From contig MFPH01000031.1 in assembly GCA_001782645.1 (NCBI GenBank), positions 1 through 35,620 of the forward strand: a stretch of DNA of 35,620 nt, in the 5' to 3' direction. Below the pieces are notes generated by a model. The model was given only the letters and a program-made list of their open reading frames with translations, had not been told where the DNA came from and searched no databases. The DNA comes from Candidatus Levybacteria bacterium RIFCSPLOWO2_12_FULL_37_14. GTDB lineage: Bacteria > Patescibacteriota > Microgenomatia > Levybacterales > UBA12049. The translations under genes were made by a program, and so were the position numbers. Below are positions 1,697-35,269 of this stretch, one piece after another; the first letter of the stretch is position 1; every line of letters starts with the position of its first letter.

Positions 1697-2842
1697 TTAG
1701 AGTTTGGCAGGATTTATGCGGATTATTTTATCATCCGTATTGTCGGGAGTACCGCGGCCATCCCTATTGCTTGTAGTTATGTAAAGCAAATTCTCCGGCT
1801 CGCCTCGCGGCGAAGCGGGTCCTACCACAACTTCCCTAATTCTTCCGATTTCTCCTTTAAGATGGGGGATAAGTTTCTTTTCGGCTATCTTGTATTCAAA
1901 TAGAGCCTCTCCTCTAAGACCGGCAAAAAATATTGAACCATTTAAAAAAGCTGTTCCGCTCGGCGCCCATGTGCCGGAACCGCTATTTAGGATCGGCGAT
2001 TCCATTCCGGCTTGTTTCTGATTTCCCTGAATAGTTGGCCAGCCGTAATTTTTCCCTGCTTCAATAATATTTAATTCATCCAGCGCACTAGGCCCATGTT
2101 CTGTTTCCCACAATTGGTTTTGGTTATCCCAGGCAAGACCTTGGGGATTTCTGTGCCCGAAACTAAAAACCAAGTTTCCGAAAGGATTGTCCAGAGCAGG
2201 TCTGCCTTCATCTGTTATTCTTAATATTTTTCCGGCCAATGAATTTATATTTTGAGCAAGAGAGGGTTCCTGAGCGTCCCCGGTTGTTATATAAAGAAAA
2301 TTATCCGGTCCGAATTTTATTCTGCCACCATTGTGATTGGATGCGCCTAGAATACCATCAACTATAATTTTTTGCTTTTGTAATTTATTATTTTCAAATT
2401 CAAATCTCGCAACCCGATTAAGGGTGTTGTCGTTAATGTTGGAATAAGTGTAATACAGATAAACAAAATGGTTTGCGGAAAAATCAGGATGAATTGCTAT
2501 TCCCAAGAGTCCGCCTTCGCCCGAATGCTTAACGTCACTTATGACAGCTATGAGATTAGGGTTTAAATTACCTTCATTATCGATAATTCTGACGCGTCCT
2601 GCTCTTTCTGTAAATAAAATACTTTTGTCAGGTAAGAAAACCAGCGCCCAGGGAATTTCCAAATTATCTGCCAAAATTGACAATCGGGGAATATCATTCT
2701 GAGCCTGATTTACTTCATTACTATCTAGTGATGGAGTATTTACAGTTATTTGTGATTGCCTCTTTCCCGCTAAATTAATGTAAACAAGACTCAAAATCAG
2801 CAGGACTGCTAAAATAATTAAGATCATTTTTTTGTTTGACAT
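1697..2842 (-). CDS. PQQ-dependent sugar dehydrogenase (glucose/sorbosone dehydrogenase family), membrane-anchored or secreted
   Basis: 381 aa with an N-terminal hydrophobic anchor. Family blocks present: GLLGIAIHPDF, HNGGRIKFGPDNFLYITTGD, GHRNPQGLAWD. Confidence 0.9.
   Translation of the reverse strand: MSNKKMILIILAVLLILSLVYINLAGKRQSQITVNTPSLDSNEVNQAQNDIPRLSILADNLEIPWALVFLPDKSILFTERAGRVRIIDNEGNLNPNLIAVISDVKHSGEGGLLGIAIHPDFSANHFVYLYYTYSNINDNTLNRVARFEFENNKLQKQKIIVDGILGASNHNGGRIKFGPDNFLYITTGDAQEPSLAQNINSLAGKILRITDEGRPALDNPFGNLVFSFGHRNPQGLAWDNQNQLWETEHGPSALDELNIIEAGKNYGWPTIQGNQKQAGMESPILNSGSGTWAPSGTAFLNGSIFFAGLRGEALFEYKIAEKKLIPHLKGEIGRIREVVVGPASPRGEPENLLYITTSNRDGRGTPDNTDDKIIRINPAKL
1799..1820. 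repeat. GC-rich element copy inside the dehydrogenase CDS
   Basis: ctcgcctcgcggcgaagcgggt is identical to 14368-14395 apart from a 6-nt indel. On the mRNA strand it folds as ttcgcc-GCGA-ggcgag. It encodes the ASPRGEPE segment. Confidence 0.7.
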
Positions 2843-2885: not shown

Positions 2886-3932
2886 ATGATGAGAGTATTA
2901 ATTATTGTAATAATTATTATCGCGATAATCTTTTTTTCAGCACGGGCAATTTTAAATAATAAATCGCCAAGAGAACTGACGGCCAATAGTGTAAATAGTT
3001 TAAATAATCTTGAAGATAGGGGAGAGGTTGTAGATTCCCCCTATCCTCTTTCCATTGAATATATGCGTCAGCAGCAATATCCGGGCAGTAATCTTACTCT
3101 CGAACAAACTCTTCCAAATGGTTCAAATTACAATAAATATATTGCTTCATATAAATCAGATGGGCTAAAAATATATGCTCTTCTTACAGTTCCGCAAGGA
3201 GAAAAACCAAGCGGGGGATGGCCTGTAATTATCTTTAATCATGGATATATTGTGCCTTCAGAGTATAGAACCACGGAAAAATATATAGCATACGCCGATG
3301 CTTTCTCAAGGAATGGTTATATAGTTTTTAAATCAGATTATCGCGGGCACGGCAATTCGGAAGGGAATGCTCCTGGTGGCTATGGTTCTCCTGCTTATAC
3401 AATTGATATTCTCAATGCGATTAGTTCTATTAAGAAATTTAGAGACGTTGATATTAACAGAATTGGCATGTGGGGACATTCGATGGGAGGATTTATCACG
3501 CTTAGAAGCATGGTTATTTCAAAAGATATAAAAGCAGGCGTGATCTGGGCGGGAGTTGTAGCATCTTATCCTGATTTAATTAGTAGATGGAGGCGGTCAA
3601 GCATTACGCCAATTCCTTTGCCTTCGGGGGCAAGAAGATGGAGAGATCTTTTAGCTCAGCAATTTGGTTCTCCGCAGGAGAATCCAGAATTTTGGAATTC
3701 TATTTCTGCCAATGCGTATTTAAAAGATATTTCAGGTCCGATTCAATTACATCATGGGGGAGCAGACACATCCGTTCCTCTCCAATTCTCGGAAAAACTG
3801 GATAAAGATTTGAAAACAGCAAATAAGGAGTCAGAACTTTTTGTTTACAGGGATGATGATCACAATATTGCGAACAATTTCAACACCGCCATCCAACGTT
3901 CCGTCGACTTTTTCGATAAATATTTGAAATAA
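2886..3932 (+). CDS. Alpha/beta hydrolase, prolyl-oligopeptidase (S9)-like, with an N-terminal membrane anchor
   Basis: GxSxG nucleophile elbow (GHSMGG) and a C-terminal D...H (YRDDDHNI). I prefer the ATG at 2886 (MMRVLIIV anchor) over the track start at 2832. Confidence 0.8.
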   Translation: MMRVLIIVIIIIAIIFFSARAILNNKSPRELTANSVNSLNNLEDRGEVVDSPYPLSIEYMRQQQYPGSNLTLEQTLPNGSNYNKYIASYKSDGLKIYALLTVPQGEKPSGGWPVIIFNHGYIVPSEYRTTEKYIAYADAFSRNGYIVFKSDYRGHGNSEGNAPGGYGSPAYTIDILNAISSIKKFRDVDINRIGMWGHSMGGFITLRSMVISKDIKAGVIWAGVVASYPDLISRWRRSSITPIPLPSGARRWRDLLAQQFGSPQENPEFWNSISANAYLKDISGPIQLHHGGADTSVPLQFSEKLDKDLKTANKESELFVYRDDDHNIANNFNTAIQRSVDFFDKYLK

Positions 3933-4437: not shown

Positions 4438-5157
4438 ATGGCTGTCCATAAAAAAACCGCAAGCGCTGAAAAAACTCCCGCCTTCACTAAAGTTTCGGCG
4501 GACAAGGAAGCACAGGGTGATAAAAAGTTAGACCAGCAGAAGCCCGTGGTCGTTTCGGATACCGTAACGGAAACAATTGTAATTGAACAGGCAGTTTCGC
4601 AAGCAGCTAGTTCGGAAATGCCCGCAGAATCCCCTGCAGAAAATCCTTTAACTGATTTTAAAGAAAAAATGGCTGAAGAAGAATTGCTCGTTACGGATGA
4701 TTCTCAAAAGAAGAATTATATGTGGCCCATACTTCTCATTTTTGCCATGGTAATACTTTTGCTGGTGGGAGTTTTTCTTTACAAATATGGGATAAATATT
4801 AAAGATAAGGTCAATGTAACAACGCCTGTTCCTTCTCCGACCGCTGCTCCGCAACCCACAAAGGTAGTAGATTTGATCAAGTATGAAATTGAGATACAGA
4901 ATGGAAGCGGGGTCAGCGGGGAAGCATCAAAGCAGGAAAGCAGTTTGAAGGAAGAGGGTTTTACGATTTCATCAATCGGCAACGCGGACAATTCTGATTA
5001 TACGCAGACTGTTATAAAAGCAAAAGCAGAAGTTGATAAAGATTTTATAGCCAAACTTAAAAGCGTTTTGAGTAATTCATTTACGGTGGGCGAAGCAGAG
5101 ATTTTGCCAGACGACTCCTCATCTTCTGTGGTTGTAATTATCGGAACTAAGAAATAA
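4438..5157 (+). CDS. Membrane-anchored LytR_C (LytR cell-envelope-related C-terminal) domain protein
   Basis: 239 aa: acidic N-terminus, one TM segment (WPILLIFAMVILLLVGVFLY), a Pro-rich linker, then IEIQNGSGVSGEASK...EGFTISSIGNAD...TVIKAK, typical of LytR_C. Confidence 0.7.
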   Translation: MAVHKKTASAEKTPAFTKVSADKEAQGDKKLDQQKPVVVSDTVTETIVIEQAVSQAASSEMPAESPAENPLTDFKEKMAEEELLVTDDSQKKNYMWPILLIFAMVILLLVGVFLYKYGINIKDKVNVTTPVPSPTAAPQPTKVVDLIKYEIEIQNGSGVSGEASKQESSLKEEGFTISSIGNADNSDYTQTVIKAKAEVDKDFIAKLKSVLSNSFTVGEAEILPDDSSSSVVVIIGTKK

Positions 5158-14152: not shown

Positions 14153-14653
14153 GTGAAAAAAATTGCAATAATTTTTATCGGTTTATTTCTGATAATTTTG
14201 GTGATTATACTTATGAAAAGTTTTTCTATCAGCATAAATTCAAAAAGTACAGGCAATTCCAATAAGGCGCTTAATCCAAGTCCAAGTAGTAGCAATAACT
14301 TGAAAGCAAAAGAAAATACAGAGGGTTCGGTTACTGTTGCAATTACTCAATTAAATTTAACAGATAACTCGCCTCGCTTTGCGGGCGAAGCGGGTTCATC
14401 GACCTTGGATTTTGAAATAGTGTTGGACACTCACTCCGGAGTATTGGATGCTGATTTGATTGGCGTATCCGAACTTGTTGATGATCAGGGGGAAATATAT
14501 AGACCAATAGCGTGGGAGGGGGATGGTCCGGAAGGGCATCACCGCAAGGGAGTTTTAAAATTTAAACCCATTCTGCCTAAGCCTAAGTCTATTGAATTGA
14601 AGATAAAGAATGTTGGCGGAATTCCCGAAAGAAGTTTTAAATGGAGCATCTAA
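14153..14653 (+). CDS. Secreted or anchored hypothetical protein with a W-E-G-D-G-P-E-G-H-H motif
   Basis: GTG start, signal-anchor MKKIAIIFIGLFLIILVIIL, and a beta-rich C-terminal domain. Carries the GC-rich element at 14368-14395. Confidence 0.65.
   Translation: MKKIAIIFIGLFLIILVIILMKSFSISINSKSTGNSNKALNPSPSSSNNLKAKENTEGSVTVAITQLNLTDNSPRFAGEAGSSTLDFEIVLDTHSGVLDADLIGVSELVDDQGEIYRPIAWEGDGPEGHHRKGVLKFKPILPKPKSIELKIKNVGGIPERSFKWSI
14368..14395. repeat. GC-rich element copy inside a CDS
   Basis: ctcgcctcgc-tttgcg-ggcgaagcgggt has the same 10-nt and 12-nt arms as 1799-1820. It encodes SPRFAGEAG. Confidence 0.7.
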
Positions 14654-32979: not shown

Positions 32980-33008
32980 TCGATTTAGTTGATGTGGAGA
33001 CATTATTG

Positions 33009-33017
33009 TGGTATATT
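33009..33017 (+). promoter_or_regulatory. Extended -10 promoter placed for a leaderless transcript
   Basis: TGgTATATT followed by 6 nt and the ATG at 33024. Confidence 0.5.
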
Positions 33018-33023
33018 TCCGTC

Positions 33024-33326
33024 ATGACTGAACGTAAAAGAAATTCCACATTTAAACAACTATCTCCGGATGAGTTAAAATCCATTGCAAAAAAATGCAT
33101 TGAATCAGCAAGAGTCGCCAGGTTTGATGATGAGATGTTGGTAAAGCTAGAATATTCTTCGCGTGCTTTGCGGGCGGGAGGGTTTACGATCGAAAATCTT
33201 GGCATGGAGATAAACGACATCTTCGAAATTACAAACCGCCTTTTTGATAAAAAAATAGAGATAGATGCGAGATTTAAGAGAATGGAACAAGTTTTAGATT
33301 CATATCCACGAGCGAGTAGGCAATAA
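33024..33326 (+). CDS. Hypothetical protein (100 aa)
   Basis: I prefer the ATG at 33024 over the GTG at 32994 because of the -10/N6 arrangement. Confidence 0.5.
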   Translation: MTERKRNSTFKQLSPDELKSIAKKCIESARVARFDDEMLVKLEYSSRALRAGGFTIENLGMEINDIFEITNRLFDKKIEIDARFKRMEQVLDSYPRASRQ

Positions 33327-34063: not shown

Positions 34064-35269
34064 ATGAATTTGTCTGTCGGAATTGTTGGATTACCTAACG
34101 TTGGAAAGTCGACGCTTTTTAATGCGTTGTTGAAAAAGCAGACAGCTTTCGTCGCAAATTATCCTTTTGCCACTATTGAGCCAAATGTTGGAATCGTTCC
34201 TGTGCCGGATTCCCGTTTGGAAAAGCTTGCAGAAATCACCAAAATTGAGGCTAAAATGGCTGAATTGCCTCCGATAAAACCCGCAACAGTAAATTTTGTG
34301 GATATTGCAGGACTCGTAAAAGGAGCAAGCGAAGGCGCAGGATTGGGAAACAAATTTTTGTCACATATCCGCGAAGTTTCAATTATTGCCCATGTGGTTA
34401 GGGTTTTTACTGATGCCAATGTTATTAGATATGAAGATGAAGAGACCCGCCTTCGCCAAAGCTCCGGCGGGCAAGGGGGAAGTGTGGGACCCAAAGAAGA
34501 TTATGAGGCAATCGAAACAGAATTAATTTTAGCTGATTTGCAAACTATCCAATCGGCGCAGGGAAAAGTGAAAAGATTTGCCAAGGAAACAGAAAAAACT
34601 GCGATTGAAAAATTATTTAAAGGATTAAATGAGGGGAAGCGGGCCTCGGAAATTGAATTAATGTCGGAAGAGCAGGAATATGCCAATACGTTTTTTCTTC
34701 TGTCGGCCAAGCCGGAAATAATTGTCTTAAACGTGGAAGAAAAAGACTATAACGAAAAATCTATTGAATCTATTGCCCAAAAATATAAGGAGATGCTGAA
34801 ACCAGTTCAGCATGACAACGAGGGGAATACAGTTGTTATTTGCGCGAAAATTGAATCTGATTTATCAGAGCTTTCAGAAGATGAGCAAAAACAATATTTG
34901 GCAGATTTGGGCGTTAAACAATCTGGTCTTGAAAGATTGATAAAAAATGCTTATGCAACTTTGGGTTTGATTTCTTTTTTAACTTGCGGAGAGAAAGAAG
35001 TCAGAGCTTGGACCATTCGACGCGGTTCGACCGCTCTCATGGCCTCCGGCGAGATTCATTCGGATTTTATGAAGAAATTTATCAAAGCGGAAGTTGTTTC
35101 ATATCCTGATTTTGTAAGTTTAAACGGTCCCGCCCGCAACGACTTCGCTAGCTTGTCTAGCGTGTCGGGCGGGTGGAAAGCTGCGCGGGAGAATGGAAAA
35201 GCCCGCATGGAAGGCCGCGATTACATCATGCGGGATGGCGACGTAGTAGAATTCAAGATTGGGGTGTAA
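34064..35269 (+). CDS. ychF: Ribosome-binding ATPase YchF (Obg-like GTPase family) carrying two insertions
   Basis: GIVGLPNVGKSTLFNAL, FATIEPN, DIAGLVKGAS and a C-terminal TGS-like GEKEVRAWTI...DGDVVEF. At 401 aa it is longer than the roughly 363-aa length I recall for typical YchF. Confidence 0.92.
   Translation: MNLSVGIVGLPNVGKSTLFNALLKKQTAFVANYPFATIEPNVGIVPVPDSRLEKLAEITKIEAKMAELPPIKPATVNFVDIAGLVKGASEGAGLGNKFLSHIREVSIIAHVVRVFTDANVIRYEDEETRLRQSSGGQGGSVGPKEDYEAIETELILADLQTIQSAQGKVKRFAKETEKTAIEKLFKGLNEGKRASEIELMSEEQEYANTFFLLSAKPEIIVLNVEEKDYNEKSIESIAQKYKEMLKPVQHDNEGNTVVICAKIESDLSELSEDEQKQYLADLGVKQSGLERLIKNAYATLGLISFLTCGEKEVRAWTIRRGSTALMASGEIHSDFMKKFIKAEVVSYPDFVSLNGPARNDFASLSSVSGGWKAARENGKARMEGRDYIMRDGDVVEFKIGV
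34439..34480 (+). repeat. GC-rich palindromic element inserted in-frame in ychF (first insertion)
   Basis: cccgcc (34446-34451) pairs with ggcggg (34466-34471). The sequence aligns with the intergenic leader at 15965-16007, including a compensatory stem change. It encodes about EETRLRQSSGGQG. Confidence 0.65.
35129..35173 (+). repeat. 45-nt nested palindrome inserted in-frame in ychF (second insertion)
   Basis: cccgcccg (35129-35136) pairs with cgggcggg (35166-35173), and cgctag (35146-35151) pairs with ctagcg (35157-35162). It is exactly 15 codons (PARNDFASLSSVSGG) and starts on a codon boundary. Confidence 0.75.

Follow-up and report, generated by a model that had tools for sequence, protein, structure and literature searches.

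The ychF gene of Candidatus Levybacteria bacterium RIFCSPLOWO2_12_FULL_37_14, carried on contig MFPH01000031.1, contains a 45-nt GC-rich palindromic block that is very probably a copy of a dispersed selfish palindromic repeat, inserted in the gene and kept as a neutral translated loop. The whole 35,620-nt stretch that was analysed is referred to as the window, and the coordinates of the ychF open reading frame (ORF) and of its palindromic block are given on it (Table 1). The block belongs to a repeat family, designated family A, which populates many genes in at least two lineages of the Candidate Phyla Radiation (CPR). It interrupts ychF as a clean insertion at a predicted loop, is patchily distributed among close relatives, and has in-frame counterparts in other genes. 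Family A is a new, very short family in the CPR, comparable to Rickettsia palindromic elements (RPEs) or to yeast mitochondrial GC clusters, and is unexpectedly linked to tRNA genes and to a GIY-YIG nuclease gene.

The element consists, in order, of CCCGCCCG, the 9-nt CAACGACTT, CGCTAG, the 5-nt CTTGT, CTAGCG, the 3-nt TGT, and CGGGCGGG. Direct reading of the sequence bears out a first-pass annotation of this DNA, which had described two nested perfect inverted repeats, 8 bp (outer) and 6 bp (inner), in a GC-rich segment of an AT-rich gene, starting on a codon boundary and spanning exactly 15 codons. The GC content is 0.69 for the element, 0.42 for the ychF gene and 0.376 for the window, and the element begins at codon phase 0 and encodes the peptide PARNDFASLSSVSGG, residues 356-370 of YchF; GPARNDFASLSSVSGGWK is the stretch to be expected in the protein if the insert is translated. 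Since the two nested repeats are each perfect and an asymmetric internal loop lies between them, the element is not a single uninterrupted palindrome. The pattern CCCGCC-N10-40-GGCGGG has two matches in the window, both within ychF, against 0.03 expected. Folding of the 45-mer gave -16.0 kcal/mol as single-stranded DNA (z = -4.5) and -24.2 kcal/mol as RNA (z = -3.5), with 0 of 200 shuffles as good in either case. Given the rarity of the pattern and these z-scores, chance is not an explanation. When the window was searched with the covariance model R1, the element scored 51.8 bits (E = 8.5e-9); the window gave no match to Rfam 15 at the gathering score. Two conventional assignments were rejected: an intrinsic terminator, as the hairpin is followed by TGGAAAGCTGCG with no T-run and sits within the ORF, 96 nt short of its stop codon, and an intein or intron, on size and position. 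On the minus strand at 33147-33178, the sequence CCCGCCCGCAAAGCACGC matches 15 of 18 bases of the family-A left arm only; it lies inside ORF 32994-33326 (peptide ..SSRALRAGGF..) and may be a decayed half copy or a chance match.

The host protein contains the Pfam domains MMR_HSR1 and YchF-GTPase_C, and phmmer aligned it to the PDB chains of Thermus (2dby), Haemophilus (1jal) and E. coli (8kie) with E ~1e-80. All three alignments show a 15-residue gap exactly at the insertion, in agreement with the earlier claim that without the block the protein would match E. coli YchF in length. Another gap, of 14 residues at query positions ~123-136, is also present in all three and coincides with the other CCCGCC...GGCGGG match. 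Homologues were examined in a set of 121 sequences, composed of the window and its best 120 homologues, which are Candidatus Levybacteria (CPR, Microgenomates) by the names in their sources. YchF has 401 residues here, compared to 365-367 in most Levybacteria relatives. The short loop form ...F-V-x-x-x-G-W-K... is found in 107 of the 121 sequences and some insertion at the loop in 14, while PARNDFASLSSVSG(G/W) occurs only in the window and its 99%-identical twin P0001. The closest homologues, with 84-86% identity over conserved columns, read ...FVSLNG|WKGAREN....

Alignment at the DNA level places the insertion between the codons for Gly355 and Trp371: the window reads TTAAACGGT[45 nt]TGGAAAGC, and the empty site in locus L002 reads TTAAACGGT|TGGAAAGG. 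The same clean 45-nt gap is seen in eight relatives, so the presence/absence polymorphism of exactly these 15 codons that the first-pass annotation had proposed looking for does exist, with no duplication at the site. P0001 comes from an independent ENA assembly, L070 (SRR1658473, project PRJNA268031), and carries the same insertion with two substitutions, one of which (GGG to TGG) breaks the outer stem. Its presence in an independent assembly indicates that the insertion is not an assembly artefact. Because its length is divisible by three and there is no stop in the used frame, ychF stays open.

The 401-residue YchF was modelled with AlphaFold2 from a 58-sequence alignment (mean predicted local distance difference test score, pLDDT, 73). 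The pLDDT falls below 50 at residues 355-366 and 118-140, which correspond to the two larger insertions, and is 86-93 in the surrounding C-terminal domain. The family-A insertion lies between two confidently modelled helices of this domain (residues 347-352 and 371-376), with no regular structure predicted. Whether the site falls in a surface loop was a check proposed by the first-pass annotation, and the model fits an insert that forms a tolerated, disordered surface loop of the C-terminal domain.

A scan of the JGI/ENA metagenome collection for GCCCGCAAYG-N6-30-GCGTGKCRGGCNGG returned at least 117 stretches. Among the matches listed, to which the counts of family-A copies given below refer, 18 lie in GC-rich DNA and are chance matches or an unrelated conserved gene. 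The other copies that the first-pass annotation had proposed to search for are represented by 99 matches in AT-rich DNA (mean flank GC 0.41), which comprise 95 distinct flank contexts and 71 distinct sequences. Their consensus is CCYGCCCGCAACGCC-[GCAAGC-loop-GCTTGC]-GTGGCGGGCGGG, with lengths of 36-51 nt, mostly 42 nt; the commonest form is the 42-mer CCTGCCCGCAACGCCAGCAAGCTGGCTTGCGTGGCGGGCGGG, and subtypes of 36, 39, 44, 45 and 51 nt occur. Three loci (L089, L131 and L142) carry CCCGCCCGCAACGACTTCGCAAGCTTGTCTTGCGTGTCGGGCGGG, which is identical to the window copy at 43 of 45 positions, the two differing positions being both sides of one inner-stem pair (GCAAGC..CTTGC versus GCTAGC..CTAGC). No listed copy lies in ychF. 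Some contigs hold multiple copies, with four in the 5.9 kb of L114 and two each in L078, L143, L105, L164 and others. The 71 distinct sequences include 44 that are stop-free in all six frames and 49 with a length divisible by three, so that random insertions could survive in ORFs; the bias towards such lengths is a property of the whole family. An RNAalifold consensus picked a shifted register and was not used. The same pattern gave a single match in the IMG/VR viral contigs, in GC-rich DNA and ascribed to chance, and hence no sign of phage carriage.

At least 13 family-A copies besides that of the window lie inside long ORFs. Hosts of in-frame copies are TatD (L076, L077), the cysteinyl-tRNA synthetase CysS (L080), a ComEC-like protein (L085), Fpg (L097), a UvrD-like helicase (L099), PrmC (L100), the alanyl-tRNA synthetase AlaS (L114), the phosphogluco/mannomutase PGM/PMM (L115), the leucyl-tRNA synthetase LeuS (L116), QueA (L126) and an IscS/NifS-like desulfurase (L141); these identities were read from the translations, that of AlaS alone being confirmed by search. 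The coding copies occur in both orientations and all three phases, that is, in six frames, with the host frame kept and no stop in the used frame, and they yield recurrent peptides such as PARNA..VAGG, RPQRQQAGLRGGR, PPATQASLLALRAG and PARHA.QLAGVAGR. The four copies in L114 lie at 749-784, 1061-1096, 2659-2700 and 3134-3175. The last two are inside AlaS, which has 679 residues compared to 616-618 in its relatives; aligned at the protein level with P0129 and P0130, both stand out as clean insertions of 14 residues, each sitting within an older insertion specific to the lineage. By the names of its AlaS relatives, Magasanikbacteria or Patescibacteria, L114 falls in the Parcubacteria group, and the hosts of family A therefore include Levybacteria (by the names of the ychF homologues, and L023) and a Magasanikbacteria-like Parcubacteria genome. 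Intergenic copies are found between convergent genes in the Levyibacteriota genome L023 and in a 16S-tRNA-Ile spacer in L144; a search with universal rRNA motifs found no copy inside an rRNA, the L144 element lying in the spacer. Further repeat-derived peptides are present in some of the host proteins (FSPSTSSGQAKRQQ in CysS of L080; SLRGVKCSEAERNDEAIS...PLAMT in PrmC of L100), which suggests that many more palindromic families exist in CPR coding regions.

Related hairpins occupy the same ychF loop in other lineages. Besides the window and P0001, 12 homologues have some insertion there, and five of these begin GPARN.... The DNA of all five is a hairpin with the same ends and a differing interior or length: the shared 5' end is CC(C/T)GCCCGCAA(C/T)G, and the shared 3' end is GCGTG(G/T)C(G/A)GG, after which comes a variable tail, C/T-N-G-G/A. 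L066 has the 45-nt GAC...GTGTC subtype, L067 and L068 a 45-nt GCC subtype, and L064 and L069 36-nt subtypes, with an AATGC start in L069. These five and L070 score 37-54 bits with model R1. The nearest neighbours of each insert-bearing YchF, at up to 91% identity over conserved columns, lack the insert (for example P0048 versus P0049 at 91%, and P0103 versus P0116 at 89%). The empty neighbours and the different subtypes point most readily to a permissive loop that received several insertions independently; many precise losses of an ancestral insertion, or gene conversion, would be a residual alternative. Other short inserts at this loop are GPTFAEVSARQ and PPAGG. The latter is encoded by a short perfect palindrome, CCGCCAGCTGGCGG, in P0013, P0028, P0040, P0066 and L047, with nine copies in five loci, and perhaps represents a hairpin element in minimal or collapsed form. 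In k-mer counts over ~1 Mb of GTDB Levybacteria-related loci, where ~16 kb per species is too thin for repeat families, no other high-copy GC-rich 11- or 12-mer was found, and CCGCCAGCTGGCGG is the sole repeated GC-rich 11-mer.

Family-A copies are often associated with tRNA genes. At no fewer than seven loci, the hairpin lies inside the D-loop of a ~25-nt tRNA 5' fragment (tRNAs Asn, Met, Pro, Val, His, Phe and Arg). Immediately after the fragment comes an ORF of ~78-90 residues, and 255-295 nt downstream of the hairpin the same tRNA is found in complete form. The ORF, at 1087-1326 in L146 for example, encodes a GIY-YIG nuclease domain (Pfam PF01541, E ~1e-16 to 1e-17). At six further loci (L072, L089, L105, L131, L118 and L098), the hairpin directly abuts a tRNA 5' end, and its last G residues, mostly three, also serve as the start of the acceptor stem. 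ARAGORN called tRNA-Lys(UUU) in L072, L089 and L105, the tRNAs in L131, L118 and L098 being cut by the contig end or uncalled. Just upstream, four of these six loci contain a GIY-YIG ORF. The upstream flank in the abutting loci mostly ends in GGG too, and in L105 a second hairpin lies upstream of the GIY-YIG ORF, splitting a tRNA-Lys 5' fragment.

Overall, a GIY-YIG ORF is found beside the hairpin in ~25 of the ~100 AT-rich loci listed, ~10-115 nt away or with an overlapping stop-to-stop frame. The window has no GIY-YIG ORF next to its hairpin. The linkage is far from random; as the mover of the hairpin, the nuclease is only a candidate, suggested by gene neighbourhood. Excision of the element in silico gave no complete tRNA spanning the junction in ARAGORN, since what it interrupts are 5' tRNA fragments upstream of a complete tRNA. 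In 15 element-bearing loci, Rfam found nothing but tRNAs. In L037 (2420-2730), a GIY-YIG ORF away from any tRNA is flanked by direct repeats, AACGGGG(C/T)TGAC, which suggests that the nuclease gene is itself mobile.

Alternatively, the hairpin could have a function of its own in ychF, either by regulating the gene as RNA or DNA (through pausing, mRNA stability or a protein-binding site) or as a useful loop, and not be selfish. In its favour, the fold is strongly preferred, and at least six divergent, Levybacteria-like ychF genes share this codon boundary as the site of related hairpins, with interiors that differ while pairing is kept (GCTAGC..CTAGC versus GCAAGC..CTTGC). However, such pairing-preserving differences are also expected if the copies came from different palindromic sources, and the 107 of 121 close homologues without any insertion there include all of the nearest. 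Moreover, identical or near-identical hairpins occur in ~95 unrelated contexts listed, including ORFs in six frames and intergenic DNA, and the 99%-identical strain L070 already carries the stem-breaking GGG to TGG. A function specific to ychF is thus very unlikely. An origin in situ, in which a lineage-specific extension of the YchF loop turned palindromic locally without any transfer, is harder still to reconcile with these data. Template switching can create perfect inverted repeats, and this loop is a hot spot of other short inserts (PPAGG, GPTFAEVSARQ), but 43/45 matches in three contigs with unrelated flanks cannot arise locally. The flanks of these near-identical copies show that they are not ychF fragments, the arms resemble those of ~99 copies listed elsewhere, and the block is a single clean 45-nt unit relative to the empty site; the possibility can practically be set aside.

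It is also conceivable that the element escapes translation, being either cut out of the transcript or skipped by the ribosome in the manner of T4 gene 60 or of the GC-cluster-derived 'byp' elements of Magnusiomyces mitochondria. The presence of a stable hairpin within an ORF is compatible with this, and related GC-rich palindromes are reportedly bypassed in a yeast mitochondrion, a finding said to be that of Lang et al. in 2014. Against it, the ychF copy and all long-ORF copies found keep the frame and are stop-free, which would be needless if they were skipped, and the flanks, GGT and TGG, provide no evident pair of take-off and landing codons. In addition, we know of no splicing in bacteria for a 45-nt hairpin. 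Removal or bypass is accordingly regarded as highly improbable.

The preferred explanation, a selfish repeat tolerated as a loop, has several observations weighing against it. The search pattern fixed the arms, so that arm conservation and pairing in the family are partly by construction, and the family alignment gave no independent arm covariation, a result that is uninformative for the same reason. No target-site duplication is present in the empty-site DNA alignment, no flank or target consensus was found among the 95 contexts listed, and no transposition intermediate was found. Lengths divisible by three show no significant excess in coding-like contexts (15/19) over other ones (30/46; p = 0.38). 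Model R1 detected no second family-A copy in the 35.6-kb window, and in ~1 Mb of GTDB Levybacteria-related sequence (63 loci) only one clear copy lies outside ychF, that of L023; an exact search of the same loci for the left-arm word returned only L023 and the half-match at window 33147-33178. The copy number of family A in this particular genome may therefore be low. Instead of independent neutral insertions, the recurrence at one codon boundary could reflect gene conversion or a preference for the site. Finally, translation of the insert is inferred from frame and stops.

For the selfish-repeat explanation, we propose that one family-A copy was pasted between the Gly355 and Trp371 codons without target duplication, and that the element would be translated as a 15-residue, Ser/Gly-rich, disordered surface loop, as the frame and stop-freeness kept in every coding copy suggest. 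It would persist by near-neutrality at a permissive loop and not through a YchF function. Its spread at the DNA level may be helped by a trans-acting, structure-specific enzyme, for which the small GIY-YIG nuclease, with its gene beside about one quarter of the copies listed, is a possible though doubtful candidate. The absence of a target consensus or duplication argues against a classical cut-and-paste MITE (a miniature transposable element with inverted repeats), and fits hairpin- or structure-dependent insertion or repair-mediated copying. We also hypothesize, tentatively and with no great confidence, that the hairpins are non-autonomous partners, or the recognition or processing structure, of a new CPR mobile system built around the stand-alone 78-90-residue GIY-YIG cassette. 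Such a cassette would invade tRNA genes at the D-loop, duplicating the 5' part of the tRNA, and hairpins, once released, would settle in permissive housekeeping-protein loops, in tRNA leaders and in spacers across CPR phyla.

The same ychF gene holds two more palindromic insertions, from other families, which the first-pass annotation missed (Table 1). The family-B insertion falls at the 14-residue gap of the PDB alignments. Nine copies of family B were found in different contexts in the local data, including a second one in the window and others in five other loci, and some have compensatory CCCTCC..GGAGGG arms. At the family-B loop of ychF, relatives carry other hairpins (a longer one in P0002, different ones in L027, L064 and L010), all preceded by a shared Y(E/Q)DE motif. 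Family C is found at two different ychF sites among relatives, the other site being at ~residue 62 in other Levybacteria, and also in other genes (L002, L016, L025 and L134), with a compensatory variant ATCCTGAA..TTCAGGAT. With families A, B and C all in ychF, the 34-36 extra residues of this YchF are largely repeat-derived. Family D occurs twice in the window, encoding the peptides NSPRFAGEAGS and GPASPRGEP, with further copies in L033 and L186. A GC-rich inverted repeat, CCTTCGC...GCGAAGG, at 63-90 in ORF 6-590 (PSPAEASAKEG) has no other copy in the local data.

Table 1. Palindromic repeats of the window, their host gene, and loci with the tRNA-linked cassette (window positions unless a locus is named)
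Feature	Coordinates	Strand	Remarks
ychF, ribosome-binding ATPase, YchF/OLA1 family, 401 aa	34064..35269	+	ORF, Pfam and PDB matches
45-nt GC-rich palindromic repeat, family A, GAC...GTGTC subtype	35129..35173	+	in-frame in ychF
Outer left arm, CCCGCCCG	35129..35136	+	exact reverse complement of 35166-35173
Outer right arm, CGGGCGGG	35166..35173	+	exact reverse complement of 35129-35136
Inner left arm, CGCTAG	35146..35151	+	holds the T of the compensatory pair relative to GCAAGC...CTTGC copies
Inner right arm, CTAGCG	35157..35162	+	exact reverse complement of 35146-35151
Family B, CCCGCCTTCGCCAAAGCTCCGGCGGGCAAG	34446..34475	+	peptide ...TRLRQSSGGQG; part of a 14-15-residue insertion ...ETRLRQSSGGQG
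Family B, second copy, 30-nt hairpin CCCGCCTTCACTAAAGTTTCGGCGGACAAG	4477-4506		near the start of ORF 4438-5157; encodes TPAFTKVSADKE
Family C, ATGCTGAAACCAGTTCAGCATGAC	34793..34816	+	peptide MLKPVQHD; DNA fold z = -4.2
Family D, CTCGCCTCGC...GGCGAAGCGGG	14368-14394 and 1799-1819		two different ORFs, read on opposite strands
tRNA-fragment/hairpin/GIY-YIG cassette loci	L146:1000-1410; L124:1770-2168; L090; L095; L135; L075; L081		hairpin in either orientation

The first-pass annotation had compared the insertion to RPEs, which Ogata et al. are said to have described in 2000. RPEs (RPE-1 to RPE-8) are ~100-150 bp long and occur in an alphaproteobacterial genus, Rickettsia. The comparison holds for behaviour: in each case palindromic repeats are scattered through intergenic DNA and, in-frame, through conserved genes, tolerated as an extra surface peptide, patchy among close relatives, and without a transposase of their own. 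It does not extend to membership of an RPE family, as the element has 45 nt and a different host lineage. Family A measures 36-51 nt, is strongly GC-rich in AT-rich genomes, often lies next to tRNA genes and a GIY-YIG gene, and spans at least two CPR superphyla rather than one genus, a distinction drawn from the description of RPEs; the two would not be expected to be related in sequence.

GC clusters of yeast mitochondria are found inside genes as well (var1, rRNA). These palindromic clusters, such as the 42-nt GC42, are sporadic and show fast subtype diversification and evidence of horizontal spread, and putative target-site duplications have been reported for them (Wu & Hao 2015, PMC4478555). 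Family A resembles them in kind only, as a ~42-nt GC-rich palindrome that is sporadic in an AT-rich genome and has several subtypes. GC clusters are organellar, have unrelated sequences and come with reported duplications, whereas family A is bacterial, shows no duplication, and has many copies in-frame in housekeeping genes. REP and REPIN sequences (repetitive extragenic palindromes and their paired forms) are imperfect GC-rich hairpins of 20-40 nt, extragenic by definition, linked to RAYT (an IS200/IS605-like Y1 transposase) and found in proteobacteria. Family A shares with them the short, imperfect, GC-rich, multicopy hairpin and, in L023, an intergenic position between convergent genes; in contrast, its copies are often intragenic and in-frame (the window copy and at least 13 others). 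No RAYT partner was seen beside the copies, though no systematic search for RAYT was made, and the GIY-YIG nuclease is the only linked enzyme gene that was seen. From MITEs, family A differs in having no target-site duplication at ychF and no flank consensus. Functionally, family A represents the RPE phenomenon; its size and composition come nearest to the yeast mitochondrial GC clusters, and its hairpin is reminiscent of REP. It belongs to none of these families.

Palindromes in coding sequence have also been reported in organelle genes of Nematomorpha mitochondria (PMC6649704) and Volvox organelles (PMC2670323), with lengths of up to 284 bp. The likeness is that of inverted repeats in translated coding sequence, and the differences are their organellar location, their often much greater length and their other sequences. 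A 2024 survey of insertions in CPR rRNA genes reports many short uncharacterised insertions, and GIY-YIG genes in non-intron insertions, and does not mention palindromes or hairpins (PMC11270868). The first-pass annotation had known of no such elements in CPR-like genomes, and likewise no paper was found, in an incomplete coverage of the literature, that connects coding palindromic repeats to CPR bacteria or Patescibacteria; earlier mentions are possible.

To our knowledge, palindromic selfish DNA inside protein-coding genes is known from very few systems, namely Rickettsia and some organelles, and we know of no established mechanism of mobility for such elements, even in Rickettsia. Here, a much shorter family, mostly of 42 nt, does likewise in the CPR, a huge and mostly uncultured bacterial branch. 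Its copies lie in core genes, among them ychF and those for aminoacyl-tRNA synthetases and repair enzymes, and at least two CPR superphyla share near-identical sequences. It provides a concrete source for some of the odd insertions in CPR proteins. It also calls for caution in the annotation and alignment of these proteins, since recurrent peptides such as GPARNAS..VAGG are repeat-derived and do not indicate shared protein ancestry. The repeat supplies markers for studies of strain-level variation and horizontal transfer, and the linked GIY-YIG nuclease is a testable candidate enzyme for this class of element. Should the GIY-YIG cassette indeed underlie the system, it would explain a share of the short insertions in CPR genes that have long been noticed without an explanation.

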